In this document: in pieces, positions 31,436 to 50,683 of the stretch | How the letters are laid out: every line of letters starts with the position of its first letter | Numbering within the stretch: position 1 is the first letter of the stretch | Virus record (IMG/VR): IMGVR_UViG_3300025133_000039 | Strand: one strand, 5' to 3' | From: an uncultured virus (IMG/VR IMGVR_UViG_3300025133_000039) | Lineage: Duplodnaviria > Heunggongvirae > Uroviricota > Caudoviricetes | Length of the DNA: 56,484 nucleotides | The notes under the pieces: generated by a model | Told to the model about the DNA's origin: nothing | Databases searched by the model: none | Seen by the model: only the letters and a program-made list of their open reading frames with translations | Program-made: the position numbers and the translations under genes

Positions 31436-34400
31436 TTACATCCTATGGTGGCCGATGGCGCTGTTGAAAACGCTCTGGTTTACCTGTCTTTGGGCTGCAG
31501 CCTGCACTGAGCGCCTATGCTTTCTCTCTCTCGCTGCAGCGACGTCTGCACCGTAGTCCTTGTAGGCCTGAAGACTGCGTCGAGCATATACTGACGTAGT
31601 TGTACCCGCTGTGTCCAGTGACAGCTTCTTATCTAGTTTACCATAGCCACCCCTGTGCTTAAACTTGTCCTGCTGGCGTCCGCCCCTAGTTTTCATTAAC
31701 TCCGAGGTGTCTCTAAGCATTTCAGACATATAGTTATTGTGTGGAGCCTGGTGGGTTCTATAGGTGCTACGGTTTCTATAATCATCGTAAGTTCCAACTC
31801 TCTGCAACGTAGAGCCAATCTCTACAGCTGCGTTCAAGTCGTTAACCCCAGCGTAACCCTGTTCCTGAGCCTGGCGCATGAGGGATGCGCCTGACATAAG
31901 TGTAGCGTTCTTCGAAAGTCGTGCCCTCTGAGCGATGGTGTTAAACGTAAGTCTTTGATCCATCTTGTCAGACATACCATAGTAAATCTGGAAGAATGGC
32001 TCAGCGTGGAGGCCTCGGCCTGCCTCTCTAGCTTTCGTCTCATGGGCGACCGCGACCGAGTAATCAACCATGGACTTCTTCCAGCTACCATAAGGTAGTG
32101 CTGCGGCGTGGCCCTGCTTTACTAGGTCAAAGTTTACGTTACGCTTGTCTGCAAATAGAACGCCGACGCCTCGCCCATAAGTAGACTGGGTGGGGTCGTA
32201 GACAATCTCAAGGTTTCCAGCTCCTGCAATAATCGCTTCCATTGCAGTCTTCGCTTCGTGCGCGTGTGGCTGGGGCGAGTACCAACTACGAGCACCGTGA
32301 CTAATTTCTGGAGAGTCAATACCAGCTAGTCGGAACGAGTACTTATTCATTCCGAAGAAGCCCTGAATCGCACCCACTACGCCACGTCGCGCGACGGACA
32401 CTGTGTCTGCGTCCTCGGCTGTAACCTTCCAATTCCCACTAGATAGGTTAATCCCTAGAAGGTTCTTACCCTTCATCCCGGAGTACTGGGACGCATCAAT
32501 ACCTTCTCCAACGAATCCAGAGGGAATAGAGCTAGCATGCCTTAGAGGGTTAAAAGCTCGTAGGGTGGAGATGTCTGCGAAGACTCCTGCTACTGGATCG
32601 TAGTGCCTAACTCCGTATACTGAGCGCATATACTTCTCACGCTCAGCAAGAAGCTCCTGGTCCATTAGAACAGCATTAGATGTCCAAGGACCACGGTAAG
32701 GTGAGCCGAAGTCCGTGTTGAACTTACGCCTGTCTGCAGCAATGCCTGACTCATTCATTCCTGAACGCCAACCCTTGTCGTTGTCGTTCAGATGTCCGAA
32801 GTTCGACTGGAACTCCTTCCACCTCTCATAATTCTGGGTGCGGAATACAGTATGGCTATCAGGTCTTTGGTCATTGCGGTTGCCGAACGCTAATCCCAGA
32901 GCAGTAACTGAAGCTGCAGCAAGTACCCCACCCTTCATCGCCTTAGAGAGACCCATACCTTGGAAGCGAGAAGTGCGTCTCGGGCCTCCACTCGCATCTA
33001 GGTTATCTATTAGCTGAGGAAGGGATGTACGACGGAAGAATTCATCAACTCCACCGTCAAGGTCTGCAATCATCTTGTCTAGCGAGCCAATGCCAGCATG
33101 CTCTTCTCTGAAGCCTGCGCTGATCCTCTGTAATGCTGTAGCTTCACCTACCTTGAGACGCCCGCCTTCCATTTTAAGACCTCCGCCCTCTTTGAGGCGT
33201 TCGGTCATTTGATTCCAAATTCCGCTAACGCGGGCGGCGTCATACTGCCCAGTATTTATAATGTAGTGAGCGGCTTGCTCTACATCCTTGAAAGTCTCTC
33301 TGGCTGCGAGGTTTACAGGGACCTCAAGAAGTTTGCCGTCAGGAGTCATCTGCTGAATCGCGCGAGTACCTCCGGACCCAGCGTGCTGTGCTGTGAATCC
33401 CTGGGTAGCAAAGTCCTGGAACATGCGATCGAAGCGCTTAGTCAAGTTAAAGCTCTGTAGTTCTGGAGCTAGTACGTCAAGGCGCTTTAGGAACGTCATT
33501 GCCTGGTGCAGGTGGCCGCCGCCTCGACGAGCTTCCTGAATAAGCTTCTTACCCGCAACTCCACCAAGCTGTACCTGGCGTAGAGCTTCAGTGCTCTCAA
33601 GAGACTTACGCAGGACGTAAGCTTCGGTAGCTGCAGTATCTTCTACCGCACGGTGCCACTCTTTACCCTGGAACATCTTAGTTGCCAGGGTTGGGTCTGC
33701 CTCGGTCGAACCAAAGAGACGCGCTGTAATATCCATCGAGAGTCCGTACTCTCGCCCAGGAGCGCTGAATAAGCCTAGCTGCCTACCATAAGACTGCTGT
33801 GCTTTAAGTACGTCCATGATGTCTCGAACATCACCAGCGCCAGTATTCCTTAGATACGCTTCATAGACCTGGGTCCAGTCGCCAGAGTGCTGTGCGCTGG
33901 CTCGGGCGGCGTTAACCGCCTTGCCAGTCACGTATAGGTTGTCAGCTGTCTGAGGGTTGAATGAAGCTAAGCCTTCATGTAGCCCGCTCTTCCGCATCTG
34001 TACGGCTAGCGCGTCTTCCTTAGAGATAGTCCCAGCCTGAACCTGCTCAAATAGCTCTGTGGGAAGCGCCGCAATCTGAGCGCCAATCTGCTTTGATTCG
34101 AACGGAGCGTTCGCAATCCAGATGGTCTTACCCTTCATTCGCTGAAGCATATCTGACCCAGGTGCCAGAGCTTCTTGAATACTAGTTCTTTGGGTAATGA
34201 TATCGCTAATGTTTCCGCCCATGCCTCTAATACGCTGCATACGAAGTGCAACGGGCTCAGAGCCACCACCATATGCCGGAGACTTTCCAGTCGCTAACAT
34301 GTGGGCCTGGAACGGATCAATCTTAGACAGCTGCTCAATAAGAGCAGCCTGCTTAATGTTCTTTAGTGCACCCGGTTTCTCGCCCTTCGCCATCTCTAGC

Positions 34401-34669
34401 TGGGCGATAATCACATCCCTCCAAGTAGAGTTCTTACCAATACCTGGGTGCCTCCTAGTAACGTCGTATCTGGTAGTCGCTAGCTGAAGGATATCCTGCT
34501 TCGGCCCACCCATACTTACTACTAGGTTAGGCTTGAAGAGGTACTCGTACGCCTTCTTGGTCTGTAGGTCGAAAATCGCCAACTCATGCAAACCACTACC
34601 ACGCTGAAGACCCATGGTCTCAGTATCGAGCAGAATTGCGTTTTGTAGCAGCGATAGACCTCGGTCCAT
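31436..34669 (-). CDS. Fusion of an N-terminal DEDDh-like 3'-5' exonuclease and a C-terminal SNase (thermonuclease) domain
   Basis: Exonuclease motifs LLDTETMGL, WIANAPFE, DIMD, HRAVED. SNase motifs DADTV, RLAGIDSPE, TYGR, VNFDLVKQGHA. Confidence 0.75.
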   Translation of the reverse strand: MDRGLSLLQNAILLDTETMGLQRGSGLHELAIFDLQTKKAYEYLFKPNLVVSMGGPKQDILQLATTRYDVTRRHPGIGKNSTWRDVIIAQLEMAKGEKPGALKNIKQAALIEQLSKIDPFQAHMLATGKSPAYGGGSEPVALRMQRIRGMGGNISDIITQRTSIQEALAPGSDMLQRMKGKTIWIANAPFESKQIGAQIAALPTELFEQVQAGTISKEDALAVQMRKSGLHEGLASFNPQTADNLYVTGKAVNAARASAQHSGDWTQVYEAYLRNTGAGDVRDIMDVLKAQQSYGRQLGLFSAPGREYGLSMDITARLFGSTEADPTLATKMFQGKEWHRAVEDTAATEAYVLRKSLESTEALRQVQLGGVAGKKLIQEARRGGGHLHQAMTFLKRLDVLAPELQSFNLTKRFDRMFQDFATQGFTAQHAGSGGTRAIQQMTPDGKLLEVPVNLAARETFKDVEQAAHYIINTGQYDAARVSGIWNQMTERLKEGGGLKMEGGRLKVGEATALQRISAGFREEHAGIGSLDKMIADLDGGVDEFFRRTSLPQLIDNLDASGGPRRTSRFQGMGLSKAMKGGVLAAASVTALGLAFGNRNDQRPDSHTVFRTQNYERWKEFQSNFGHLNDNDKGWRSGMNESGIAADRRKFNTDFGSPYRGPWTSNAVLMDQELLAEREKYMRSVYGVRHYDPVAGVFADISTLRAFNPLRHASSIPSGFVGEGIDASQYSGMKGKNLLGINLSSGNWKVTAEDADTVSVARRGVVGAIQGFFGMNKYSFRLAGIDSPEISHGARSWYSPQPHAHEAKTAMEAIIAGAGNLEIVYDPTQSTYGRGVGVLFADKRNVNFDLVKQGHAAALPYGSWKKSMVDYSVAVAHETKAREAGRGLHAEPFFQIYYGMSDKMDQRLTFNTIAQRARLSKNATLMSGASLMRQAQEQGYAGVNDLNAAVEIGSTLQRVGTYDDYRNRSTYRTHQAPHNNYMSEMLRDTSELMKTRGGRQQDKFKHRGGYGKLDKKLSLDTAGTTTSVYARRSLQAYKDYGADVAAARERKHRRSVQAAAQRQVNQSVFNSAIGHHRM

Positions 34670-37797: not shown

Positions 37798-38163
37798 GCC
37801 TCCTAAACTGCGAAGCAGTTTACATTTAGAAGTCAAGTCTAAGCTCGACATATAGGGAAAGTCAATTTTGATTATTTATATTTTGGGGTTTGGGCCGCGA
37901 TTCTTGTCAGAAGTCTTTGTCTCTAAGTAGGCGAAATTATTGTGAAAATATATTTTGCAGTACTAGGGTTGGTAGAGGATATATAGGAGATTTGACCAGG
38001 TTAGTGTTGTGTCATTTTGGGAGTACCGTTCATTCGAGCCCACCCCGGTTTAATCCAGCTTTTTTATTTCAACGGTGCGCTGAAGCACCATGGAGATAGA
38101 GACATGCAAGAGGCCTGTCCTCTCGGGACGAGGACATCAGCTAACTCCTAACCTCTAACAAGT

Positions 38164-38200
38164 AAAAAAGATGCACTGCCGCAAGGCAGTGCGCTTTTTT
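38164..38200. terminator. Bidirectional terminator-like hairpin
   Basis: AAAAAAG-ATGCACTGCC-GCAA-GGCAGTGCG-CTTTTTT. Confidence 0.75.
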
Positions 38201-38212
38201 ATTTCTGACGAT

Positions 38213-38925
38213 AGCGTGCGGTACCACCGTCACCTACACACCACCAGTGTGCAGGTAGCAGTAGGGCCGTAGTCGTACCTGTAGTCCCCGTGGGCTACCA
38301 TCCTATACGTATCGTGGGCTCGTACCCAGCATGAATCGGTATGCGTATAGGTTGGCTCTGATGTAGCTGTCGTGTAGCCCCATGTACCTAGTGCATGGGA
38401 TAGGTCACCACCTAGTAGGGTAGGGCATAGCAACCCCTGCCCCACACATGGTGAGTGTACTAACAGGGTGACACCTGGCTATGGGTACCCCTCTCATACC
38501 CGTTAAGAGAGGGGAGGTACGTGGTCCACCTAATAGAAGGACTGAGCATGTGGTGTGGGTAGCGCCCACCACGGCTCCTGTGTGTGCAACGCACACAGTC
38601 ACCGGGTACACCACAGGTAAGTGTACATACGTAGGTCTCACTGCGTAGCGACTAAGGTGTAGTAAGGGGTGTTCCACACACACAACCCCTGAAGGCCTAT
38701 GAGAATACCGGATCCTAGGGGGATACCTAGGGTCGGCGGGCCTGGAGGCCGAAACATCCAGGCAAGGGTCATAGCAGAGATACCGCACCTTCCGTGCGAT
38801 TGAAACCCGGTCTAACCAACCAAAGAATCTCTGTGGTCAGGAAGTAAGTTGGCCTGACACACCTAGCGCCCAGGGTTAAGGGCACCCAGCACCGTTCTGG
38901 TGCTACCCCGCACGATGAAGTGCAT
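38213..38925 (+). ncRNA. Candidate large (~700 nt) structured non-coding RNA or leader
   Basis: No credible ORF. More than 12 consecutive hairpins, many with G.T pairs that work as wobbles only on the + strand. Confidence 0.55.
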
Positions 38926-38939
38926 AGATGGAGATAGTA

Positions 38940-39707
38940 ATGTCCGCTTTCGTGAACTACGAGCTGCCTGTGTGCGTGCTCCCTGTCCTCCTCTTGCTCA
39001 TCGGCTACGGCCTGATGAGCATCGCCAAGCGCAGCCTGACGGCTGCCGTGTTCTCTGGTAACACCGAGCGTGTTGCCTACCTCGCGGAGGCCCTCATGGA
39101 GAAGGCCTCCTACATGAACCGCTTCTGGGGTAAGACCCAGGAGTGGTTCGCCACTCGCCCTGCCGCGCTCTCCTCGTGGGCTCAGGCCCGCAAGGAGAAC
39201 GTCCGTTCCGCTGGGAAGGCGGTCGCCAAGGGCTTCCTGGCCCTGGCAATGGGGCTCTTCGCCCTGCTGCTGCTGCTGGTCGCTGGGGTTGGTGCTGCCG
39301 CCAACCTCACCGTCGCCACGTACCGCAAGGCGCGTGCTTCCCTGAAGGCCCGGATCCTGAACTGGCTCGGTGCCACGGAGATGGTGAACGAGCTGAAGCG
39401 TGAGAACGCCAAGCTCAACCTGAAGGTCCGTCGCCTGGAGATCCTCCAGCAGGTTGCCGATCACGACTACGTGGTCCAGACCGAGGCGGACAAGATGGCC
39501 GAGGTGCTCGATGCTGAGTTCCGTACTCAGCTGGAAGTCATGCACCGTGACGACATCCAGTGGATGTGGCTGCAGCTGTACCCTGGATACAGCTGGCGCT
39601 CCACGTTCTGCAAGGAGTGGGGAATTGAGGACATCATGGTCCTCCCCCCTGGCCACCGAGCGAAGGCCTATGAGGCCTTCTGCAAGGTGGGACCGCTTCC
39701 GTTCTAG
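38940..39707 (+). CDS. Hypothetical membrane-anchored coiled-coil protein
   Basis: GGAG RBS, two hydrophobic segments and strong G/C-ending codon usage. Confidence 0.75.
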   Translation: MSAFVNYELPVCVLPVLLLLIGYGLMSIAKRSLTAAVFSGNTERVAYLAEALMEKASYMNRFWGKTQEWFATRPAALSSWAQARKENVRSAGKAVAKGFLALAMGLFALLLLLVAGVGAAANLTVATYRKARASLKARILNWLGATEMVNELKRENAKLNLKVRRLEILQQVADHDYVVQTEADKMAEVLDAEFRTQLEVMHRDDIQWMWLQLYPGYSWRSTFCKEWGIEDIMVLPPGHRAKAYEAFCKVGPLPF

Positions 39708-39907
39708 TGGTCTGCGGTGACTGCCTGGGGGACATGCATATCGTTGGAAAGCGGTATGTGTGTCCCCCGTGTGAGGATGCGCCCGAGGAGAGGCGTGTCA
39801 AGAAGGTGAAGCCGGTGAAGGTGAAGAAAAGAGTAATTCCCTTCACTGGTGGTGGCGCTACCGCCACCAAGTGGGCCTGCGGTTGTCTCTTTGAGTGCGA
39901 CTGCTAG
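39707..39907 (+). CDS. Small Cys-rich basic protein
   Basis: CxxC...CxxC and CxC...CxC motifs, lying between a stop codon and a terminator. Confidence 0.4.
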   Translation: MVCGDCLGDMHIVGKRYVCPPCEDAPEERRVKKVKPVKVKKRVIPFTGGGATATKWACGCLFECDC

Positions 39908-39917
39908 GCAAGGTGAT

Positions 39918-39960
39918 GGGGTGGCGGGTCTTCGGACCCGTCGCCCTGAGCTTTTTTCTT
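39918..39960 (+). terminator. Hairpin with cUUCGg loop plus T-tract
   Basis: GGGTGGCGGGTC-TTCG-GACCCGTCGCCC, then TGAGCTTTTTTCTTT. Confidence 0.75.
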
Positions 39961-40041
39961 TGATGATACCGAATGTACGGCGTTCTAACACACGACGTCA
40001 TACGTTCTCGAACCACCTGTGTGTTCGTTAGGAGCTAGAAG

Positions 40042-43000
40042 TTGGAAAACTTCAAGCGTCTGTTCGCCCTCGCGATCAGCCTGCTCGTCTTCGTCGCTAA
40101 GAAGCGACTGTATGGCGTGAAGGCTGCCACAAACCCGAAGGGAATCCTCACCTGGATCCCCTCTAACCTCAACAAGGATATGGGTCACGTCGGCCTCATC
40201 TCCGAAGCCAACCCGGACACCACCCGTTTCGAGATTATCGGAATGGAAGAGTCCATCACCCTGGTGCCGAATGAGGAATGGCACCCCTCTATCGTGACCA
40301 TGGCCTCCTGGAATGCCAAGGAGACCGGTCTGTTCAACTGGACGAAAGTTCAGTCTCTCTTCGATGAGGGAGACCTCATCGTGTCGAAGAAGGCGGAAGA
40401 AGTGGAAGACCACAACCGACGACTCGACGCTCGAAAGGAAGAGCGCGCTGTGAACCGGCGCACTCGCTCCCTGAGGGCTCGTGTCGAATCCTACATCACT
40501 AGCTTCCTGTTGGTGGTGTACAAGAAGATGATGCCTGAGGGTCCGAAGGTTCGTACTCGTTACACTCGGTTCGTGAGCCTGTCTGGGCTCCTGCACCGGA
40601 TGTTCCCGGATCTGCCGATGCCGAGTGTCCAGCTGAAGAACGACATGCCTGCCGATGAGCAGCGTGACGATCTGCCGGTTGCCATTCATCAGGCAGTTGC
40701 TCGTGATGGCCACATGCTGGTCAACCGCAAGCACATCGTCCACCGTGAGATCGTGCCCCTGTTGGCGAAGACCTTTCCGAAGGCCATCGACTTCAGGGCG
40801 TACGTCAAGGGTCTGTGCGCGCCTCTCGTGGCCAACGGTCACAGTCGCGTCGAGGTTCGGTTCGTTCACCTGCAGCATGGCAACAAGAGTGCTGGTGCTG
40901 ATGGGCGTGGCAACATCCACCCGAACCACCCGCTGTTCGCTCAGCTGGGCTACAGCGGACATGGTCCTCGTCCCTGCATCCAGATTCGTGGATGGAACCC
41001 TGACTTGGGATGCTTCATCAAGGGCATCCTGGTTCCGAGCGAGTCGGCAACGGACGCTGAAGGCAACCCCGAGATCCAGGTGGACTGGCTCCAGATCAAG
41101 GGGCTGCTGAAGGAGACGGCAAAGGCGAAGCACAAGCGTGCTGCCAAGAAGGTCTCTGATGGTCAGGCTCTCCACACGTTGGAGATGGCTGAGGCTGAGT
41201 TCGGTACCTACGAGTCGCAGGAAGCTCGTCGGTGGCTGGATGAGGGTCGGATGGTGCTGGACCTGGGTGTGACGAACGTCTTCGACAAGATCGTTCCTTA
41301 CTCCTGGTGCTTCGAAATCCTTGAGCGTGTAGAGGACACGCCTCGTACTCGTGAAATCATTCGCGAGTGGGTGGAAGAAGCGTTCCAGAAGCTGACCTTC
41401 GAGAAGCTGCTGGATTCGGCCTGTGCTCAGAGCGACAACGTTGCTTTCGCTCGCAAGCTGTGCAAGAAGCTCGGCATTGACCCGCTGAGCTTGCGCTTCA
41501 TCATGAAGCAGGTGCAGAAGGCGCTGGGGCAGCGGCTCTGGCTCATCAACCAGGGAGCTGGTAAGAAGGGTGATGGCTTCGTGTCCATTCTGGATGCAAC
41601 GCTGGAGCCTGGAACGTGTGTCCTGCCCTCCATCATGAAGGGTAAGCAGCGCGTGTACCTGCCGGGAGACACCATTGGAATCACTCGGTTCCCGATGGTC
41701 CTGCCTCAGGGTCTGCGTGTTGTGCGTGTGGTCGAGCCGTCCGAGCATCACCTGCTCAAGACGGAAGACGGCATGCAGCACGTCCCGAACGCCATCTGGC
41801 TCCACCCTGACGATCTGGAGATCGGCATGCAGGGTGACGACGATGGAGACGTGGTCATTGTGAACTCGGACCCTCGGGTTGTGGAGTTCTACAAGGAGCG
41901 TATCTCCATGCTGCCTGGTAAGCCGGACGCCATGTACTTGATTGAGCCTGTCAAGGGTGAGAACAAGGACAACCGGCTGGAAGAGCTGCACAGCCTCAGT
42001 GCTGAGGGTCGTGCGCTGGTGGCTAAGGATGGTCGTGGTCCGGTGGGTCTGAGTACCTTCTGGGGAGCGGCGTTCCTGGCGATTGGCAAGCGGGTTCACG
42101 GTCTGAGCATGGCTCACCTGACTCAGGAGTACATCGACTGTGCCAAGCGGATTCCGTTGTGGACGGACCCGCGTCAGGCATCCAATCCGAGCAACTACGA
42201 AGAAGTTCGGCCTGGAATCTGGAAGATCAAGCCCGGTAACACGGTGGAGATGGACTGGGCAGACGATGATGGCATGCTGAATCAGGACCTGGTGACCAAG
42301 TGGGTGCAGAAGCAGTTGGGCATGAAGCTCAACGACATTCTGTCCTGGCGTCAGCCGAATGGTGTGAAGAGCATCATTCTCGACTCGTGGGACATGCCCG
42401 AGGAGCCTGTTGGCAACCTCGTGCACTACTGCTCGCGGACCGCTTTCGAGGTGGCGCAGGGTTGGGCTGAAGAGCAGCTGGGTACTCAGGAGTCCGGTGA
42501 CATGTCGATGCTGGTCGTCGAAGCGCTGGAAGCAGCAGGTCAGGACATGAGTGGTGTTGAGCCGATGGCTCAGGAGCGCTACGTCAAGACCTTGCGAGAG
42601 AAGAGTGGTCTCAACGAGTTCGCCAAGTCCACGCTGTCTGTCATGAAGGCAGGCCTCGATGTGGAGGAGAAGGCTCGTCAGATGGATGCACTGCGTGCCA
42701 TCCTGGCTGGTCACCTCTCGATGCTGAGCATCGAAGAGTTGGCTACCATCTGGGTCACCGAGCTGTCGCAGCGGGATGAGAATGGCAACATTCCTGACCG
42801 GGCTGTCACTGCAGCGTTCCGGGCTGTGTGCTGGGAGGGTTCGCCCGTCCTGGTTGCGCTGAACCTGGAGCACAGCGATCGGTGTGAGTTCGCAGCTGAG
42901 AACATGGACGCCATCATGGCGTGGCTGCAGCACCGCGTTGATACCGGCAAGAACGGGAACTTGTTCCACGCGCTGGCTGAGACCATCTCGTCCAGCGTGA

Positions 43001-43179
43001 AGCACCAGGAAGTCACTGGTGTGGAGCTGCACAAGTGCAAGGACTGCACTACCCTCATGGAAGGCAAGGTCGTGTCCGAGGTCAGGAAGACCAAGGGCTC
43101 GGATGCTGAGAGTGTTGTGAAGGACATCATGTGGTCCGTGAACCGTGAACTCGGTTGGCCCACGAGCCGTCACAGCTAG
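40042..43179 (+). CDS. Single-subunit two-barrel RNA polymerase (YonO / cellular RdRP-like)
   Basis: Ordered motifs DGRG, QIR, KGIL, QIK, TRFP, catalytic GDDDGD (41836-41850) and QEYIDCAK. AGGAG RBS before TTG. 1045 aa. Confidence 0.85.
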   Translation: MENFKRLFALAISLLVFVAKKRLYGVKAATNPKGILTWIPSNLNKDMGHVGLISEANPDTTRFEIIGMEESITLVPNEEWHPSIVTMASWNAKETGLFNWTKVQSLFDEGDLIVSKKAEEVEDHNRRLDARKEERAVNRRTRSLRARVESYITSFLLVVYKKMMPEGPKVRTRYTRFVSLSGLLHRMFPDLPMPSVQLKNDMPADEQRDDLPVAIHQAVARDGHMLVNRKHIVHREIVPLLAKTFPKAIDFRAYVKGLCAPLVANGHSRVEVRFVHLQHGNKSAGADGRGNIHPNHPLFAQLGYSGHGPRPCIQIRGWNPDLGCFIKGILVPSESATDAEGNPEIQVDWLQIKGLLKETAKAKHKRAAKKVSDGQALHTLEMAEAEFGTYESQEARRWLDEGRMVLDLGVTNVFDKIVPYSWCFEILERVEDTPRTREIIREWVEEAFQKLTFEKLLDSACAQSDNVAFARKLCKKLGIDPLSLRFIMKQVQKALGQRLWLINQGAGKKGDGFVSILDATLEPGTCVLPSIMKGKQRVYLPGDTIGITRFPMVLPQGLRVVRVVEPSEHHLLKTEDGMQHVPNAIWLHPDDLEIGMQGDDDGDVVIVNSDPRVVEFYKERISMLPGKPDAMYLIEPVKGENKDNRLEELHSLSAEGRALVAKDGRGPVGLSTFWGAAFLAIGKRVHGLSMAHLTQEYIDCAKRIPLWTDPRQASNPSNYEEVRPGIWKIKPGNTVEMDWADDDGMLNQDLVTKWVQKQLGMKLNDILSWRQPNGVKSIILDSWDMPEEPVGNLVHYCSRTAFEVAQGWAEEQLGTQESGDMSMLVVEALEAAGQDMSGVEPMAQERYVKTLREKSGLNEFAKSTLSVMKAGLDVEEKARQMDALRAILAGHLSMLSIEELATIWVTELSQRDENGNIPDRAVTAAFRAVCWEGSPVLVALNLEHSDRCEFAAENMDAIMAWLQHRVDTGKNGNLFHALAETISSSVKHQEVTGVELHKCKDCTTLMEGKVVSEVRKTKGSDAESVVKDIMWSVNRELGWPTSRHS

Positions 43180-43184
43180 TCAGA

Positions 43185-43263
43185 AGTAAGGGAGGAGCTT
43201 CGGCTCCTCCCTTACTGCGGGAGGTGGCACCAATAGGGGTGCCACCTCAGGTCTTTTTTCTTT
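43185..43263 (+). terminator. Tandem hairpins plus T-tract after the RNAP gene
   Basis: AGTAAGGGAGGAGC-TTCG-GCTCCTCCCTTACT and GAGGTGGCACC...GGTGCCACCTC, then TCTTTTTTCTTT. Confidence 0.8.
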
Positions 43264-43294
43264 GATGGGTAATGACACCCGAAGGAGAGACGCC

Positions 43295-43696
43295 ATGATC
43301 GTTAGCAAGCTTAACTCTGTCAAGGTCTGGACCCCTGGTTCCGACATCGATGCTCGCGACGCCTTCCGCTTCTGGGGCTACGTGTTCCAGTGGGAAGGCA
43401 AGGCGAGGGGGCCCGAGGAGCGCCGCCGTCGCTTTCGGCAGGTTCACAACCTGCTGAACAACCTGTACTGGGATGAGGAGGCCGAGGCCGCGCTGTTCGA
43501 TGTCTACTACTGGGGTTCCTTGAACCGCACGTACAAGACGGAGAACCACCCCGGTCACCGGTTCTTCCAGGCCTTGCAGGGTCACGTGTGGAAGTTCGGG
43601 TCCAAGAACCGGAAGAAGACGGACCGACCCTGGAAGTGGGTCCGCGTGCCGAACAACGACAACCCGTTGGCCCCGTTCAAGGGTCTGCACTGGTAG
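43295..43696 (+). CDS. Hypothetical early protein
   Basis: AAGGAG RBS before ATG at 43295 and biased codons. Confidence 0.75.
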   Translation: MIVSKLNSVKVWTPGSDIDARDAFRFWGYVFQWEGKARGPEERRRRFRQVHNLLNNLYWDEEAEAALFDVYYWGSLNRTYKTENHPGHRFFQALQGHVWKFGSKNRKKTDRPWKWVRVPNNDNPLAPFKGLHW

Positions 43697-43790
43697 AGTC
43701 GTGAGTAGTGGGTGGGGAGGCTTCGGCCTCCCCGCCCTGGTCTTTTTTCTTTTACGGTGTGATATACAACCCGCACACCTAGGAGAGAAC

Positions 43791-44105
43791 ATGACTACGT
43801 GGCAACAGCGAATGAAGGAAGACCGACTCACCAACCGCTACCAGAACTGCGTTGCGAGCGAGTTCTACTGGTACAACAACGGTCGCAAGAGCATCTCGAA
43901 GGAAGAGATGCTCGACATCATCAAGCCCTTGCTGAAGTCGAACCAGGACTTGTGGTACATCATGCACTGCATCATGCCTTACGGTCCTGAGGGGAACCCC
44001 GGAATGCACTTTGGCAACATGACCAGTGGTGATGGCATCGGCCCGAAGACGGTCGAGAAGATCTTCGAAGCGGTCCAGGCCGCAGTGAACGAGAAGATGG
44101 CCTAG
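43791..44105 (+). CDS. Hypothetical early protein
   Basis: AGGAG RBS before ATG at 43791, followed by a GAAA-loop hairpin. Confidence 0.75.
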   Translation: MTTWQQRMKEDRLTNRYQNCVASEFYWYNNGRKSISKEEMLDIIKPLLKSNQDLWYIMHCIMPYGPEGNPGMHFGNMTSGDGIGPKTVEKIFEAVQAAVNEKMA

Positions 44106-44308
44106 ATTGAGATGGAGGGGAGGCCGAAAGGTCTCCCCTCCAGTACTCTTTTATTTGGTACTAACGACGACCTCCGCACACAGGCCTCTTCTCACGCCAC
44201 CATTCCTCCGCGACGACGACAGGCTCGCTTACGCTCGCTAGGTGGTGCTGGCATAGCCCAATCGGGCCTCGCCTTTTTCTTTCCCACTCTTTTCGTTTGG
44301 AGGTGTAC

Positions 44309-44449
44309 GTGAAGAAGCCTCGTAACTGGCATGCCGTCAATGCGAAGTTCCGGTCATCTGCTGGTCCTATGAAGAATAAGAGTCTTCGTGGGTCTGGTAA
44401 GGGGAAAGGGAAGGTTGCGCGCCACCCCAAGCACAAGTCAAAGTACTGA
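44309..44449 (+). CDS. 46-aa basic mini-protein, ArfA-like
   Basis: GGAGG RBS plus GTG. Sequence MKKPRNWHAVNAKFRSSAGPMKNKSLRGSGKGKGKVARHPKHKSKY; KGKG..R..KH resembles the ArfA C-terminal motif. Confidence 0.55.
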   Translation: MKKPRNWHAVNAKFRSSAGPMKNKSLRGSGKGKGKVARHPKHKSKY

Positions 44450-44514
44450 GGTTGAGGCATCCTAGTGGTGCCTCAACTAATCGAATAAACAAGCTCGATT
44501 ACTCTCGCTACGGG

Positions 44515-44707
44515 GTAGTGCAGTCCTCGGGCTCCCGAAATCCAGATAGGCCTGTCTGGATCGACATGGGGGTTTGGTTCTGAGACGGTGACTAGTACCC
44601 TGGGCAGGGAGCTGGTTTTGGGTCGGATGCATGCTGAGCCTCAGTGCCTTAGGGCTCTACCGCATGTCAAACGACCTTTTCCGAGGGGTTCGAATCCCCT
44701 CTGCACT
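44515..44707 (+). ncRNA. tRNA-like ncRNA (7-bp acceptor plus canonical T-arm) with a ~160-nt structured insert
   Basis: AGTGCAG (44517-23)/CTGCACT (44701-07) stacked on AGGGG-TTCGAAT-CCCCT (44684-700), with nested internal stems. Confidence 0.7.
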
Positions 44708-44742
44708 TTCTAATAAACAAGCTCGCTTATGCTCGCTGGATT

Positions 44743-44920
44743 GTGAGAGCTAGAGACAAACCTCTAACGATCAACGGGAGCGCGAGGCTGGAACCATACC
44801 AGTTGCATTCTGCAAGCACACCTCCTACGTGTGGAGTACCAGACACAGTGTGTGTCGTCTGGGGACGTAGGCCGCATGCTCGTTGGAGTTGAGAGTCATA
44901 CCTGTTTCAGGGTGGCTCTC
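44743..44920 (+). ncRNA. Candidate structured small RNA
   Basis: Between motif A and a terminator, with no RBS-led ORF. Stems CTCTAACGA/TCGTTGGAG, CCTACGT/ACGTAGG and CCAGAC/GTCTGG. Confidence 0.55.
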
Positions 44921-44960
44921 TTCTTTTTAATAAAGAACGCTCTCTTACGTTCGCTGGGCT

Positions 44961-45147
44961 GTGCAGGTCTTGATCAGCCTGCTCGCACGACAACAGTGAT
45001 GTACAGCTGGGTCGGGAGGACTACTCTTCCGATTCTGTCGAGCGGTTCATAGGTGGCGCCGAGGTGGCATCTCGGGCAGCAACTCAAGCATACATTCACG
45101 CCAATGGATGGGAGAAGAGAACCTCGACGGAGGTTCTCTTCTTTTTT
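44961..45147 (+). ncRNA. Candidate structured small RNA
   Basis: Between motif A and the terminator AGAAGAGAACCTC-GACG-GAGGTTCTCTTCT-TTTT. Starts GTGCAGG. Internal stems GCTCG/CGAGC, GTCGGGAG/CTTCCGAT and CCGAGG/TCTCGG. Confidence 0.5.
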
Positions 45148-45225
45148 AATAAAAAAGAACCACAAGCTCTCTTACGTTCGCTGGAGGGTGCTGGGACCAT
45201 GTCGGTCCCACACGGAGAGAATACC

Positions 45226-45504
45226 ATGATCGTTGTTACCCGCCACCCCGCGTACTTCCAGTACCTTGTCGAAGAGGGAGTCTGCAAGTCCGACGACGAG
45301 GTCGTCGAGCACGCCACGGTCGCGGAGATCGCAGGGCGTGACGTCGTCACCTCCGGGCTGCCGCTCCACCTTGCAGTGGAGTGCAAGACCCTCACAACGG
45401 TGGGGCTGTTCCTCCCCGCCGAGCTGCGTGGCAAGGAACTGGACATCGAGGACGTGCGCAAGTACGCCCAGCCCGCCGCAACCTACGTCGTGACCGGAGC
45501 CTGA
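45226..45504 (+). CDS. csx16: Csx16 (VVA1548)-like protein, putative cyclic oligoadenylate ring nuclease
   Basis: Signature VTRHP...VVEH...GLPLHLA...LPAELRGKEL..ED...Y.V. GGAG RBS, 92 aa. Confidence 0.75.
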   Translation: MIVVTRHPAYFQYLVEEGVCKSDDEVVEHATVAEIAGRDVVTSGLPLHLAVECKTLTTVGLFLPAELRGKELDIEDVRKYAQPAATYVVTGA

Positions 45505-45619
45505 AGCAGGGAGAAGAGAAGACGAGAGGCGGACCTTACGGGGTTCGCCTCTCTCTTTTAATAAGCTCGCTGACGCTCGCTAGGACTTGAGGCTTCGTCC
45601 TCACAACCAAGGAGGTAAC

Positions 45620-46180
45620 GTGGGAAACACGTTTGGAATGAACCCGTTCGTGCTGCGGCAGGTTGAGGCATCACGCTTCAGCCACTTCCGTGGCTCGCAC
45701 ATCTGCCTGCTGGACATGGTCGCGGAGTCGTTCGACCCTGAGACTCAGCAGGGATACCGACCTGGAGTCTACGAGGTTCCCGTGAACCCCAAGGGCTTCT
45801 TCTCCAACCAGGTGACGCTGGTCGAAGGAGATCTGCTGGTCGGCAAGTTCGAGGCTCGCCGTGAGGGTGAGGCTCCCAGGAAGACCGTTACGACGCTCGC
45901 ACGTCGCAAGTCGGTCGCTGGCTCCGCAACCATCATCATCTACGCCTCCGCTGTCTTGGCGGAAGATGGTGACAACTCGCTTCCTCCGCTGCCGGGGAAC
46001 TACGAGGTGGTGTCGATCAACTGTACGGCAGAAGAGCAGTTGCCCATCTGTCCGGAGGTGCTGATGCACAACCACTTCGGCAGTACTGGTGGCACGAGCA
46101 CGGGTCTGAGCGACTCGGAGTTCGTGGCGGTGCTCAAAGCATCGTTCCTAGCACACCGGGACAAGGCTAGCTGCGGCTAG
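45620..46180 (+). CDS. DUF3228-like protein
   Basis: AAGGAGG RBS plus GTG. Pattern F..RQ, GY.P, EARREGEAP, IY, YEVVSI, P.xP..LMHN...GGT. Confidence 0.6.
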   Translation: MGNTFGMNPFVLRQVEASRFSHFRGSHICLLDMVAESFDPETQQGYRPGVYEVPVNPKGFFSNQVTLVEGDLLVGKFEARREGEAPRKTVTTLARRKSVAGSATIIIYASAVLAEDGDNSLPPLPGNYEVVSINCTAEEQLPICPEVLMHNHFGSTGGTSTGLSDSEFVAVLKASFLAHRDKASCG

Positions 46181-46255
46181 GAGAACTAGGGAGACCACTC
46201 TTCGGGGTGGTCTCCCTAGAACTAATAAATAATGCTTGCTGACGCTCGCTACGCT

Positions 46256-46338
46256 GTGCAGGATTCTACGTTGCACGCGCGCGCACTGGAAGCAATCCGG
46301 CCTTAGGATGGGGTTCGAATCCCTCGTGAGTCCTGCAC
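46256..46338 (+). ncRNA. Degenerate tRNA-like RNA with an elongated acceptor stem
   Basis: GTGCAGGATTC(T)ACG/CGTGAGTCCTGCAC closing stem, GGGG-TTCGAAT-CCCT T-arm and CTGG-AAGCAAT-CCGG anticodon-like arm. Confidence 0.65.
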
Positions 46339-46357
46339 TCTTCAACCAGGAGACACC

Positions 46358-46534
46358 ATGTTCGCACGACTGAAGCGGCTCTTCACCAAGAAGACCACGC
46401 CTCCGCACTACGAGATCTTCACCACCACGTACATCGATGGTGAGTGCTGGATCTGCCAGCGCTCCACTGGGACTCCGATTCGTCGGCTGTCCTCCTTCTT
46501 CAACGACTCCCACAACCAAAGGATGGGACGATGA
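46358..46534 (+). CDS. Small hypothetical protein (58 aa)
   Basis: AGGAG RBS, MFARLKRLFTKK..., ATGA overlap with the next gene. Confidence 0.6.
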   Translation: MFARLKRLFTKKTTPPHYEIFTTTYIDGECWICQRSTGTPIRRLSSFFNDSHNQRMGR

Positions 46535-46992
46535 ACGCATACCAACGACGAAAGGCCCGACGCGCGGCGCTCCGCATGGTGGCCAACTTCCAGACGAAGC
46601 TGTTCCGGGTGCCCGGTACCGCTGCGCACGCCGAGCCGCTGAAGTGCCGAGGCTACAAGTTCTCGGTGCAGGCCTCGGACTACCACTACTCCGAGCCGCG
46701 AGACTGGTGTGCCTACACCGACTACACCGAGATGGAGGTCGCGATCTTCGACTCGGACGGAGACTGGTGTGTCCTGGCCGACGCCGAGGAGCACGAGTTC
46801 GGCACCCGCTTCGAGAAGTGGGACGGAGCGACCACCAGCGTCACACCGTACATGGAAGTCGAGAACATCCAGGCACTGCTGAACGCAGTCGCCCTCGGTG
46901 AGATTCGGCCCATCAAGCTCTCGGACTACCTCCACATGGTGAAGGCTGACCGCGAGATCGAGGCGTGCATCAACGGCATGGACGTGGTCTAG
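46531..46992 (+). CDS. Hypothetical protein
   Basis: ATG at 46531. FSVQAS.YHYSEPR...EVA motif common in phage hypotheticals; biased codons. Confidence 0.7.
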   Translation: MNAYQRRKARRAALRMVANFQTKLFRVPGTAAHAEPLKCRGYKFSVQASDYHYSEPRDWCAYTDYTEMEVAIFDSDGDWCVLADAEEHEFGTRFEKWDGATTSVTPYMEVENIQALLNAVALGEIRPIKLSDYLHMVKADREIEACINGMDVV

Positions 46993-47010
46993 TTAGCAAT
47001 CACGCTAACC

Positions 47011-47088
47011 ATGTACTCCTTTTCTACCGCATTGGAGTGCATTAATAAAGACGGTAGTGGGTCAGCTGTGCCCATCGTACTAACAGCT
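47011..47088 (+). ncRNA. Two tandem H-type pseudoknots in a 3' UTR
   Basis: PK1: ATGTACTCC/GGAGTGCAT plus CTACCG/CGGTAG. PK2: GTGGGT/GCCCAT plus AGCTGT/ACAGCT. Confidence 0.55.
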
Positions 47089-47187
47089 TGTAGGGAGTGG
47101 CTTCGGCCGCTCCCTACTTAATTATAAACAAGCTCTCTTACGCTCGCTGGATCGTGGTAATTCCGAACAACTCTCACCGAGGAAACC

Positions 47188-47358
47188 ATGACCGACTACG
47201 AACCGAACTTCGTCATCCTGACGTACGAGGACCTGTTGCTGCTCGAACTCATCTACACCATCCGTCAGGAGATCGCACGCCAGCGTCGAATCGCTGTCCT
47301 GCTGGATCAGCTGGCCGACACCATGGAAGAGCTGTACGAGCTGGGCTTCCCCTACTAG
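47188..47358 (+). CDS. Small acidic helical protein (56 aa)
   Basis: GAGGA RBS. MTDYEPNFVILTYEDLLLLELIYTIRQEIARQRRIAVLLDQLADTMEELYELGFPY. Occupies its own cassette. Confidence 0.65.
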   Translation: MTDYEPNFVILTYEDLLLLELIYTIRQEIARQRRIAVLLDQLADTMEELYELGFPY

Positions 47359-47436
47359 TCCCTCCGCTGAGCCTGCCCTGTCTGGGTGGGCTCAGCTGGG
47401 TGCAATAAATAAGTGCTCGCTTACACTCGCTACGTG

Positions 47437-47714
47437 GTGGTGAGATGAACAGCTCCCTCTGCAGGCAATGACTCGCTTTCCGTCCTGTGAGTGTCACGCC
47501 TTCATGGAGCCACGTTCACCCGTCGTGTCGAAGACTCTGTCTACAGCTGAACCAAAAAGAACACCGAGGACTCGCGTCCTGTTCGAAGTAGGTACCCATA
47601 AAAGCAAATAAGGCCCGTACTCCCCCTCCGAAACCGGATCGGAACACGAGTAGGACCACAGCGTAATCCGCGCAATGCTGGGATCAAGGTTGTAGGTAGA
47701 GTCTTCGATATGGC
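47437..47714 (+). ncRNA. Candidate structured RNA with a 26-bp G.U-rich closing helix
   Basis: 47522-47547 pairs with 47689-47714 at all 26 positions. Upstream domain TGAAC..GCTCC/GGAGC..GTTCA. Confidence 0.7.
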
Positions 47715-47741
47715 TCAACCTTCTCAATAATAAGGAACAAG

Positions 47742-48023
47742 ATGGAAATCAACTTCAGTCACTTCATCGATTCCCGAGCCAACGCGAAGAAGGCCTTGGC
47801 GGCACTGATTCACCTGTGCAAGGCGTTCGATGTTGATGATCGCGACATCCACGCGATCATTCGTTCGATTGCAGGAACGCAGAACGCAGAGATTCCAGTC
47901 ATCGCCGTCTACGAACTGGGGAATACGATCCCGACCATGAAGAAGATCCAGGTCATCAAGCTGATCCGCATGCAGACCGGCTGTGGACTCCGCGAAGCCA
48001 AGATCGCTGCGGAAAGCATGTAG
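47742..48023 (+). CDS. Ribosomal protein bL12 (L7/L12) C-terminal domain-containing protein
   Basis: KKIQVIKLIRMQTGCGLREAK matches the KI.VIK.VR..TG.GLKEAK signature. AAGGA RBS. Confidence 0.75.
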   Translation: MEINFSHFIDSRANAKKALAALIHLCKAFDVDDRDIHAIIRSIAGTQNAEIPVIAVYELGNTIPTMKKIQVIKLIRMQTGCGLREAKIAAESM

Positions 48024-48181
48024 TCGCATAACACTCGCGTACGCTCGTGACGTGGTGGTGGTTTCTCCTGCGGGGGTGTCTGGCTTCGGCTGGGCACCCT
48101 CGCTTCTTGCCAATAAGACTCGCTTACGCTCGTTGCGGGGTGATGACCTGGCGATGATGCCTTGTCTCAGCAGGAGGGCTC

Positions 48182-48460
48182 ATGCCCAACAAGGAAGACA
48201 AGTCCCTTGCTCCGATGCCGTGGTGGGCCAAGCTCATCGTCGGTGCGACCGCTGTTGGTCTGATCGTGAAGTTCACGCCGATCCAGCAGTGCCTGTACCT
48301 GTTCCTCATGATCGTGATGGTCCCGATGGCCCTGTTCGCAGGAATCGGTCTCATCTCCCAGGGCACCTACGAGGCGCTCCAGGGGAAGATCGCGGAAGCT
48401 CAGGCTGCGTTGCAGGAGCGAGTTGACGAGAAGATGCGGGAACGACGAGCCTCGGCTTAG
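48182..48460 (+). CDS. Small membrane protein with coiled-coil tail
   Basis: AGGAGG RBS and two hydrophobic segments. Confidence 0.7.
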   Translation: MPNKEDKSLAPMPWWAKLIVGATAVGLIVKFTPIQQCLYLFLMIVMVPMALFAGIGLISQGTYEALQGKIAEAQAALQERVDEKMRERRASA

Positions 48461-48514
48461 TCCAACCGTCCGTACTGTAAGCAAGAAGTAAAACCGTACT
48501 AAGGAGTACACCCA

Positions 48515-48958
48515 GTGAAGATTTCCCTTCAGGCCGTCACCGACACGGTCACCGCTGCCGTTCCCGGCACGTTCAAGTTCGCGATGCACGGTGGCAACTG
48601 TCACGTCACCTTCGGCTCCCTCCGGGGTTCCGATGACGAGGCCAAGTGCCGTGCCCTCACCCAGGCTGCCGACGCCCTCCGCGCCGCTGGTCTGGAGCCC
48701 ACGGTCCGCCTGTCCACCCGGTTCAAGGGTGAGGACAACTGGTCCCCGATGCCTCACATCTGGGTCAACCAGCCGTCCGCGCAGGAGCAGGCCACCTCGA
48801 ACCTGGAGCAGCAGGTCGCGACCCTGACGACTCAGTTCTCGCAGCTGATGTCCGCCCTCCAGGCGGGTCAGGCTCAGGCGGCTCCGGCTCCGTCGGGTCC
48901 CGAGGTCGTTCGCAAGCCCTCGAAGGAGTCCGTCAGCACTCCCGACTCGCCCATCTAG
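48515..48958 (+). CDS. Hypothetical protein
   Basis: AAGGAG RBS plus GTG and strongly biased codons. Confidence 0.75.
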   Translation: MKISLQAVTDTVTAAVPGTFKFAMHGGNCHVTFGSLRGSDDEAKCRALTQAADALRAAGLEPTVRLSTRFKGEDNWSPMPHIWVNQPSAQEQATSNLEQQVATLTTQFSQLMSALQAGQAQAAPAPSGPEVVRKPSKESVSTPDSPI

Positions 48959-49043
48959 GGCAAGAAGCTGACTTCCTGAAGTATGGGGGTGGGTCCACAG
49001 TTCCGTGGGCTCACCCCTGACGCTTCATAACTAAGGAGAAACG

Positions 49044-49244
49044 ATGGCTCGTCGTCACGTTTCGTACCGTGTGTACTCGGATCATCCGAAGCACAAGCAG
49101 ACCTCCGTGGATGTGTTCATTCCCGAAGGTCAAGATCCCCTCGTGGCTGGCTTCCGAGCGAGTCACGACCTGCGTCAGGTTCCGATGACGTTCACCCGAG
49201 GCAAGGCCACGTTCAACACGCGGTTCAGCTACCGGAGGAACTGA
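49044..49244 (+). CDS. Hypothetical protein
   Basis: AAGGAG RBS, 66 aa. Confidence 0.7.
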   Translation: MARRHVSYRVYSDHPKHKQTSVDVFIPEGQDPLVAGFRASHDLRQVPMTFTRGKATFNTRFSYRRN

Positions 49245-49537
49245 TGGGATACAACGCAAACCTGGCAGACCCCAAGGCCTGCCTGATCGTTCGGAAGTTC
49301 ATGCGTCCTGTGAAGGGCCGCAAGAACAAGGAACTCGTGCTCCGCGCCTTCATCGGCAAAGAGACCGAGGCCGGCAACTACACCGGCTCGTCGTACCGCT
49401 CGTTTCCGATTCTGGACCGACGCGGCAACTACGACGCAACCAAGTGTGCTGACCGCAACGCCTGTTGGGTCGGACCACGCCTGATTCGTCTCCGTGATGG
49501 AGCCGACATCACCCCGGAGGAAGAGAATGCTTCGTAG
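49244..49537 (+). CDS. Hypothetical protein
   Basis: TGATG coupling and GGAGG RBS. Confidence 0.7.
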   Translation: MGYNANLADPKACLIVRKFMRPVKGRKNKELVLRAFIGKETEAGNYTGSSYRSFPILDRRGNYDATKCADRNACWVGPRLIRLRDGADITPEEENAS

Positions 49538-49745
49538 CCTTCTTCGCATCGCAACTGCCCAACGTGAGGCTTTCACGTCCGCTCTCGTCAACGAGGCTGA
49601 CGTGCTCGGTCCCAAGCTGGTGGAGACCGTCAAGATCTGCGTCCGCTTCAACAAGCAGGAGGAGGGTCGCCGCGAGCGAATCGTCGCCGCCTACACCTCC
49701 TACCTCAAGCAGATCGACGAAGTCCTGGAGGAAGACGATGGCTGA
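49527..49745 (+). CDS. Hypothetical protein
   Basis: GGAGG RBS before ATG at 49527. Confidence 0.65.
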   Translation: MLRSLLRIATAQREAFTSALVNEADVLGPKLVETVKICVRFNKQEEGRRERIVAAYTSYLKQIDEVLEEDDG

Positions 49746-49989
49746 GACGACCAACGACCAGTCGAAGGGGATCAAGTTCGTCTTCCGCAGGGTGAAGGGC
49801 CAGGAGTACTCCCTGCCCTACTCCTACGTGGAGGACCGCTTCGTCGAGAACTCGGCCAGCAACCGCGAAGCCGCCGAGAACGCCAAGGCCTCTGGCTTCA
49901 CCTACGAGACCATGCAGAACAGGTACGGACGTGACAGCGCCAAGCTCCAGGCGGAGCTGAAGCGCAAGCAGCCGGCGATGTTCCTGTAA
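49738..49989 (+). CDS. Hypothetical protein
   Basis: GGAGG RBS before ATG at 49738, followed by a terminator. Confidence 0.7.
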   Translation: MAETTNDQSKGIKFVFRRVKGQEYSLPYSYVEDRFVENSASNREAAENAKASGFTYETMQNRYGRDSAKLQAELKRKQPAMFL

Positions 49990-49995
49990 AGAACC

Positions 49996-50029
49996 ACGTG
50001 AGGATCCCTTCGGGGGTCCTCACGTTTTT
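49996..50029 (+). terminator. Intrinsic terminator
   Basis: ACGTGAGGATCCC-TTCG-GGGGTCCTCACGT-TTTT. Confidence 0.85.
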
Positions 50030-50095
50030 AATAAAGAATTAGGATGACGCACTCGCTTACGCTCGTGCGTTGGTGCTAGGTGACCGTTGTCCTCA

Positions 50096-50188
50096 GCCCC
50101 CGAAGGGGGCAATAAGGTTTAAGGTACGACGCTTCCCCCGAAGGGGGAGACTCTAAAAACATCACCACCATTAAGCCCCGTAAGGGGC
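50096..50188 (+). repeat. Three near-identical mini-hairpins (CCCCC-GAA-GGGGG x2, GCCCC-GTAA-GGGGC)
   Basis: At 50096-50110, 50134-50148 and 50175-50188. Confidence 0.8.
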
Positions 50189-50212
50189 GTAACGTAAGTT
50201 AAGGAGAACAAG

Positions 50213-50404
50213 ATGCCTGTAGGTTGGAACAACCTGGTAGCGAAGCAGAATCATCAAGTGAAGTTCACCTTCACTGACGGGAGCGAAGCGACCGTCACCA
50301 TGGTCAACGACCTGGACGAGGACGAACTCACCGAAAAGCTCAATGCTTGGAGGACTCAAATGGGTGTCGAAGGACTAAAGTACGAGATTCTTACCTCGAA
50401 CTAA
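50213..50404 (+). CDS. Hypothetical protein (63 aa)
   Basis: AAGGAG RBS. Confidence 0.65.
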   Translation: MPVGWNNLVAKQNHQVKFTFTDGSEATVTMVNDLDEDELTEKLNAWRTQMGVEGLKYEILTSN

Positions 50405-50583
50405 GGTTCGTAGGAGAATAGGCACAGAAAAGAACGATTCTAATTCTTGGGGTACACATCCCCATGGAGAAGAGTGTTTAAGAAAATAGAATGGTGTTTT
50501 AGAGGTTTGGCAAAACCCTGAGATATCAGCTATTTACTCCGCGAATCACTCCTGTTTTAGTTCAATCTAGCCACATATCGGAA

Positions 50584-50658: not shown

Positions 50659-50683
50659 TCTCTTCGCTTACGCTCAGTGCGTG

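Follow-up and report, generated by a model that had tools for sequence, protein, structure and literature searches.

A conserved, highly structured non-coding element, possibly a large leader RNA, ahead of the operon of a QDE-1/YonO-type RNA polymerase in an uncultured tailed phage

Introduction

Between the leftward and the rightward gene arms of an uncultured tailed phage lies a stretch of some 700 nt in which hairpins follow one another almost without interruption, and this raises the question of whether it encodes a large structured RNA, from which strand such an RNA would be read and what it would do at this place of the genome. Few natural RNAs of more than 500 nt with a conserved architecture are known, and each of them has opened new biology, as ribozymes, OLE and the GOLLD and ROOL assemblies illustrate. 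An earlier note on this DNA proposed that 38213–38925 is free of ORFs, saturated with hairpins and a candidate giant non-coding RNA selected for its fold on the + strand. The position of the element is defined, as it heads the operon of a single-chain RNA polymerase with undefined promoter recognition and regulation, and analogous stretches occur at the equivalent place in a whole group of uncultured phages from marine and groundwater sources.

Results

The element lies between two gene arms, ahead of a single-chain RNA polymerase gene

The window, by which we mean the whole stretch of 56,484 nt analysed, belongs to an uncultured tailed phage, and its DNA matches come from sequencing runs labelled as marine metagenomes. 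The genes for the terminase, portal, major head protein and tail sheath are on the − strand, left of 37851, those rightward from 38940 are on the + strand, and the divergent gap of 1.07 kb between the two arms contains the element. Rightward of 38940 the GC content increases from about 0.50 to about 0.60 (0.54–0.62 along the right arm at 39001–50000; both the structural arm and the DNA past 50 kb are at about 0.50). Searched against GenBank phages, the terminase finds only matches below 28% identity, to jumbo-type phages. A second record (G001) represents this phage over 18407–33080 of the window and stops short of the divergent gap and the element. Elsewhere in the window, a 1077-aa protein encoded among the structural genes (31436–34669) has a staphylococcal-nuclease domain (PF00565, E 4.7e-11), and a 146-aa protein (45064–45504) matches the Pfam family Cas_VVA1548 (PF09652, E 2.2e-13).

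The + strand gene at 40042–43179 encodes a protein of 1045 aa with a Pfam match to the RdRP family (PF05183, E 0.0023) that is under the family cut-off, a motif, MQGDDDGD, that is invariant in the profile alignment, and an AlphaFold model (pLDDT 72.3) for which Foldseek gives Neurospora QDE-1 as best match (E 3.9e-13), with plant RDR2, Thermus-phage P74 gp62, P23-45 gp96 and crAss-like phi14:2 gp66 as further top matches. Taken together, the sub-threshold RdRP match, the motif and the Foldseek matches indicate a single-chain RNA polymerase of the YonO/QDE-1 type, with two double-psi barrels. A tblastn search against 50,697 GenBank phage records gave no match and a sequence search of the PDB no relative; distant relatives, at 25–34% identity, are found in marine and groundwater contigs. 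Scanning a profile of the 1045-aa protein against metagenome contigs yielded 21 loci, among which is L002, syntenic with the window and with a polymerase that is 86% identical.

From left to right, the gap comprises an AT-rich divergent region, a conserved box (37959–38075), a tiny variable ORF, a terminator (38172–38200) and the element, after which come a gene of about 255 aa, a Cys-rich ORF of 66 aa, a second terminator and the polymerase gene. The terminator at 38172–38200 is intrinsic and works both ways (a 9-pair stem and T-run on the + strand, an 8-pair stem and T-run on the − strand); it has a counterpart in L002 and constitutes the left edge of the element. The first rightward gene (38930–39707, + strand) has a GGAG ribosome site and starts at ATG 38940, and its product, which has a hydrophobic N-terminus and no PHROG or Pfam match, is 35% identical in amino acids to the L002 counterpart. 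The Cys-rich ORF (39707–39907, + strand) contains CxxC pairs, and between it and the polymerase gene stands a strong + strand terminator (39917–39961, a 14-pair stem and T-run, repeat family D5). Windows of 150 nt within 39650–39900 fold at z-scores down to −10; this stretch was considered as a second RNA and rejected, as it corresponds to the small Cys-rich ORF plus the terminator.

Box and element are separated by a slot (38091–38151, + strand) that is a hot spot, occupied from strain to strain by different tiny ORFs, each with a terminator of its own. In L002 (~1905–2005) a different small ORF and an extra terminator replace the cassette, further strains in three DNA runs (X2, X3, X4) diverge at it, with loose ends at 38089, and the cassette is missing from L006, L008, L010 and L012. 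In both the window and L002 a T-rich junction flanks the insert on either side.

The box itself, of about 90 nt on the + strand, lies downstream of the AT-rich divergent region and contains an ACCAGGT-type word and a GCCCACC followed by the T-run in which it ends, GCCCACC being invariant in an alignment from 10 sources. It occurs once per locus, in every case on the same strand as the polymerase gene, at L003 952–1004, L006 1232–1284, L008 7022–7079, L010 ~4070–4165, L012 7074–7180, L013 5644–5700, L014 ~2549–2597, L017 1282–1338 and L018 4444–4499, and an A(C/T)GG follows it at a distance that ranges between 14 and 35 nt across loci. RNAalifold finds no consensus fold in the box alignment, just 3 pairs. 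Candidate roles of the box are promoter, nut/put-like site or DNA site.

Further into the right arm, a 16-nt motif, CTCGCTTACGCTCGYT, has 13 + strand copies at 44224–50678 (allowing up to 3 mismatches; chance expectation 1.1) and no copy near the element. By eye, several copies have a terminator hairpin and an A/T-rich tract before them and a small gene after them, and the motif also occurs in L002. We infer that these copies are candidate promoters of a later, phage-specific class, perhaps for the phage polymerase, in which case the host enzyme would transcribe an earlier unit that includes the element and the polymerase gene.

The element is non-coding, and its core is conserved

The stretch 38201–38927, between the two-way terminator and ATG 38940, is non-coding on both strands. 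On the + strand the 713 nt of 38213–38925 carry 41 stop codons in the three frames and no ORF of more than 55 aa; on the − strand there are ORFs of 127 and 71 aa, the longer of which has just 34 residues in a common frame with its 159-aa counterpart in L002. The indels that separate window and L002 within the element measure 1, 3, 1, 2, 2, 4, 8, 3 and 1 nt, and those of 1, 2, 4 and 8 nt, together with the non-conserved − strand ORFs, indicate a non-coding stretch, which is what the earlier description as ORF-free amounts to. A protein-coding gene on either strand, under any genetic code, is ruled out, since no reading frame is kept between the two sequences.

The alignment to L002 delimits a conserved core at 38377–38925, of about 550 nt and some 20 hairpins in three domains. 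L002 2220–2791 and window 38377–38958 are 77.7% identical in nucleotides; in the core, identity amounts to 93% in the 5′ half and 82% in the 3′ half, compared with 82–85% in the polymerase gene and 68–72% in the flanking genes, and conservation continues to the start codon at 38940. As judged from this alignment, the element is more conserved than its neighbours. The 5′ part (38201–38376, + strand) is also rich in hairpins, with stems at 38281–98 and 38298–38355, and is barely alignable to L002, so that of the hairpin-saturated stretch first described, 38377–38925 is conserved and the 5′ 165 nt are not.

Within the core, the most conserved half (38377–38660, 93% mean column identity with L002) adopts in the + strand consensus fold a three-way junction domain (38376–38480) and hairpins at 38488–38514, 38523–38543, 38546–38575, 38578–38598, 38606–38626 and 38628–38647. 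It is followed by a variable domain (38661–38770), in which L002 has other hairpins in place of those of the window: by eye, three hairpins of the domain and the adjoining one at 38784–38798 correspond to stems of other sequence. The 3′ part (38771–38925) is again conserved and consists of a long helix (38774–38834) and hairpins at 38836–38858, 38868–38883, 38888–38904 and 38910–38923. Not only stems but also loops and junctions are identical between window and L002. The stems singled out in the earlier note are present at 38281–98, 38302–51, 38379–99 and 38578–98, as is the domain at 38697–38774 with its two inner hairpins; the helix thought to close this domain, CTATGA/TCATAG, is by eye not kept in L002, and the consensus fold closes the domain differently.

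Base pairs are preserved beyond chance

The RNAalifold consensus of window and L002 on the + strand has an energy of −183.6 kcal/mol and 141 pairs, of which 13 are compensatory and 7 have one-sided G·U changes, with none broken; helices 16, 18 and 20 of the variable domain hold 6 of the 13 compensatory pairs. When partners are slid by 1–3 columns as a control, pairing drops to 32–50% and compensatory pairs to 0–2. As this consensus fold derives from the two sequences that are scored, we made a separate, unbiased test, in which the minimum free energy fold (MFE) of the window alone was computed and the 113 substitutions of L002 were then scored against random placement. On the + strand the substitutions break 19 pairs, against 42.5±3.9 under the null (0 of 1000 simulations as low), and create 7 compensatory pairs against 3.1 expected. 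On the − strand, 24 pairs are broken against 40.8 expected, and 9 are compensatory.

A distinct scenario results from coding controls, in which + strand broken pairs number 36 against a null of 40.9, 41 against 38.6 and 72 against 60.3. Over both strands, a first polymerase stretch gives 36–42 broken pairs, a second one 40–41 and a 173-aa gene 55–72, with respective nulls of 37–41, 38–39 and 56–60, and the controls thus behave like the null. As far as two full-length sequences allow, the comparison shows that the base pairs of the element are maintained by selection, with compensatory change. This number of sequences is too small for a statistic of the R-scape type. A possible third variant is seen in contigs from DNA runs, in which the 38578–98 hairpin has other letters and, by eye, a short stem is feasible. 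Over the element these contigs represent mainly an L002-like strain, and the stretch is partly present in seven DNA runs from 5 studies, with no RNA run among the sequencing runs listed as containing it.

Folding energy by itself discriminates poorly

We compared folding energies with those of dinucleotide shuffles (20 per strand for 38213–38925, 30 for the core). The 713-nt stretch has z-scores of −4.48 on the + strand and −2.23 on the − strand, the core −4.62 and −2.17, and the L002 core −3.88 and −2.44; local 150-nt windows within the element reach about −3 at best. Pieces of polymerase gene give, on + and − strands, −2.50 and −1.79 in the window (549 nt), −4.57 and −2.76 in L006, −4.86 and −2.98 in L017, and −3.26 and −2.79 in L018. 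The z-score of the element (−4.5) is just modestly beyond that of these coding controls (−2.5 to −4.9). Clearly, since coding stretches fold at such values in the sense direction, z-scores alone over-call structure in these phages: the element does fold below its shuffles, as the earlier note had asked, but so do coding controls, at −2.5 to −4.9. In fact, the better folding of the + strand relative to the − strand is found in 4 of 4 coding controls too.

Strand

The earlier note had argued for the + strand from imperfect pairs being mostly G·T on it, an argument that fails, as the MFE folds contain 18 G·U pairs on the + strand and 30 on the −; in the consensus folds, G·U cells number 22 and 23, respectively. 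The reading of the + strand stands instead on the consensus energies (−183.6 kcal/mol against −170.95 on the −), the z-scores and the context, the pair test being nearly equal on the −. As for context, the element leads with no intervening terminator into the GGAG ribosome site of a + strand gene; the left-edge terminator works both ways and would thus halt leftward transcripts ahead of the late genes; and behind the analogous elements of L008 and L017 stands a terminator that, by eye, works one way, on the + strand. We consider it probable that the element is read on the + strand.

The element matches no described RNA family

A search of the whole window with Rfam 15 at gathering thresholds gave 0 matches, with GOLLD, ROOL, OLE, HEARO, raiA and the group I and II introns among the families covered, and one in E-value mode over 37850–39000 gave 5 matches (E 1.7–9.9), each located either at the terminator or beyond the limits of the element; on 8 related loci Rfam found two tRNAs only. 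The suspicion that the element would fit neither GOLLD nor ROOL is thus borne out. By blastn the element has no match among GenBank phages. In IMG/VR, exact words of 39, 19, 17 and 17 nt from the element gave 0, 0, 1 and 2 matches, and the three matches to 17-nt words were dismissed as chance, as nothing is found in them by two models of the element, R1 (5′ half) and R2 (3′ part); a search of IMG/VR with three single flanking proteins gave no relatives. Against the 21 loci, R1, R2 and nhmmer find the window and L002 only, and weak matches in L014 (E 0.022) and L008 (E 0.0032) were not credited. On the basis of these searches, the element belongs to no described RNA family and would be a previously undescribed large structured RNA.

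An intergenic search of IMG/VR for covarying structured motifs has been described, with motifs averaging 67 bases and at least 3 IMG/VR regions needed for each (PMC10690425). As far as described there, the comparative approach to IMG/VR is alike, and differs from our case in that the element is of about 550 nt and has, by exact words, no other IMG/VR copy; the element may overlap with a sub-motif of that catalogue.

Analogous stretches stand at the same place in other phages

A shared layout is found in 10 of the 21 polymerase-anchored loci with a complete element (L002, L003, L006, L008, L010, L012, L013, L014, L017, L018), and in 2 more with a partial one (L004, L009): the box, optionally a small ORF and terminator, a hairpin-rich, ORF-poor stretch of 400–1300 nt, the first + strand gene and, eventually, the polymerase gene. 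These calls were made mostly by eye, and by blastn for L004 and L009; the count leaves out L011, L016, L020 and L021, and another five loci (L005, L007, L015, L019, L022) have too little upstream DNA for a call. An automatic count of elements by ORF gaps was rejected, as spurious ORFs fill GC-rich non-coding DNA. A second contig scan added 3 loci (L023, L024, L025), of which L024 equals L006 over the 871-nt element region compared.

On the + and − strands, respectively, the analogous stretches fold at z-scores of −4.55 and −3.35 (L003), −7.10 and −5.15 (L006), −6.03 and −6.13 (L008), −8.28 and −6.56 (L010), −5.64 and −4.78 (L012), −6.36 and −5.26 (L014, 2950–3920), −9.88 and −4.35 (L017), and −4.99 and −3.86 (L018); that of L013, at −0.99 and +0.07, folds no better than shuffles. 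Identity between elements within clades is 76–84% for L006 and L004, 69% for L008 and L010 and 80.5% for L008 and L009, the elements of L014 and L018 have 50 nt in common, and in the L006/L004 consensus fold 21 of 123 pairs are compensatory. Between clades, blastn links close pairs only, and no 10-mer (up to 1 mismatch) is found in more than 4 of 8 elements. The elements of different clades are alike in position and character, and their common descent is without sequence support. By eye, the sole motif noticed to recur across clades is AGCCAAGARAAGAAA, about 12 nt long and rich in purines, common to L010 (~4781), L017 (~1776) and L018 (~4921), which belong to different clades.

Discussion

Leader or free-standing RNA

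The reading that we prefer, to which we give about an even chance, is that the element is a new large structured RNA, read from the + strand as a folded leader that heads the early, polymerase-encoding operon and acts in cis. According to this, 38201–38927, with its core at 38377–38925, would encode an RNA rather than act as DNA, and this RNA would be the long folded leader of a rightward, presumably early operon running through a small membrane protein, the Cys-rich protein and then the QDE-1/YonO-type RNA polymerase. The host polymerase would make the leader from the divergent promoter region, and the leader would act on its own transcript, possibly by stabilising it, by timing translation or by allowing passage of the terminators at 38172–38200 and 39917–39961, both of which the host enzyme would need to pass to reach the polymerase gene.

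The ends of the element bear on the choice between a leader and a free-standing RNA. Scans detect neither a terminator in the interval from 38925 to ATG 38940 nor a recognisable sigma-70-like promoter after 38200, directly upstream of the element, so that the element lacks the promoter and terminator of its own by which a free-standing non-coding RNA gene would be recognised. Among the 11 complete elements, the window's included, an own terminator follows in 2 (L008 and L017), and the other 9 continue into the ribosome site of the next gene. The missing terminator before the next gene and the proportion of 2 in 11 make a long folded leader at least as likely as a free-standing RNA. Of the giant non-coding RNA first proposed, a conserved non-coding element with selected base pairs is therefore retained, and its free-standing status is not established.

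A large RNA acting in trans, cut or terminated from the mRNA after the model of GOLLD (RF01998) and ROOL (RF03087) and serving as a scaffold, as an assembly or as a decoy for a factor of host or phage, is nevertheless a possibility, although we rate it as rather unlikely. It would account well for the size and ornateness of the element, which match these RNAs, for the identity of loops and junctions in window and L002, and for the terminators found on both sides of the L008 and L017 analogues. The element resembles GOLLD and ROOL in being phage-borne, in the 500–800 nt size class and in having many conserved hairpins. Unlike these, it is fixed directly upstream of a gene, its analogues are mostly without own terminator and it matches no Rfam model; to our knowledge, GOLLD and ROOL are not bound to one fixed operon position.

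Readings at the DNA level, on the other strand, or without function

Less probable still is an element that acts as DNA where the two gene arms part, for instance as a replication origin or as a single-strand hairpin signal. In favour of this, pairs are preserved almost symmetrically between strands, the cumulative GC skew reaches its lowest value near 37 kb, and an AT-rich divergent region adjoins. However, the turn in the skew coincides with the switch of gene strand and is thus not specific, the element is GC-rich (0.55), and the conserved stretch holds neither an AT-rich unwinding element nor iterons, with two 2-copy direct repeats of 8–11 nt only; moreover, some 20 separate hairpins with conserved loops would be unlike the known design of origins.

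We are slightly more doubtful of an RNA from the − strand, which would be either the leader of the leftward late operon or antisense to the 5′ region of the first rightward gene. The late-operon non-coding RNA of SPbeta (PMC5467207, as far as described there) offers a precedent, and pairs are preserved on the − strand as well, with more G·U pairs. Against this, the terminator at 38192–38173 would halt leftward transcripts before the first late gene, the start of such transcripts would fall within the first rightward gene, the z-score is just −2.2, and the terminators of L008 and L017 work, by eye, on the + strand only. A non-functional spacer of decayed genes or accumulated selfish hairpins, which would fit the lack of sequence common to elements of different clades and the frequent indels of whole hairpins, is very improbable with a 5′ half that is 93% identical, above the 82–85% of the polymerase gene, and with broken pairs at less than half of chance.

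Significance and comparison with known systems

QDE-1 itself performs RNA-dependent synthesis. A bolder idea, to which we give only a small chance, is that the polymerase has a dedicated partner in the folded RNA, which would be either the template or primer for RNA-dependent synthesis or a cofactor that confers promoter specificity on a sigma-less enzyme. This would explain why a structured RNA travels with the polymerase operon across clades in which the protein is only 25–34% identical. If the element does control or partner the polymerase, large phage RNAs would be linked to transcription of the YonO/QDE-1 type; if it merely stabilises the transcript as a leader, the addition would be modest.

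As a leader, the element invites comparison with two systems. The lambda nutL/N leader and the put RNAs of HK022 measure about 70–220 nt and form one or two stem-loops. The likeness is one of place, past an early promoter, in front of the first early gene and ahead of terminators on the way to later genes; the difference is one of scale, with a core of about 550 nt and some 20 hairpins in the window, where antitermination is only a candidate role.

The second system is SPbeta, also a phage with a polymerase of the YonO/QDE-1 type, in which the late operon is reported to be started by YonO, from a promoter left undefined, at a point ahead of 'an unannotated non-coding RNA' (PMC5467207). A long non-coding RNA thus heads a long operon there too, before yonK (Forrest et al. 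2017, PMC5467207). The arrangement is different: as described for SPbeta, the RNA is made by YonO and heads the late structural operon (PMC5467207), whereas in the window the element heads the operon of the polymerase gene itself, and the structural genes are on the opposite arm and strand.
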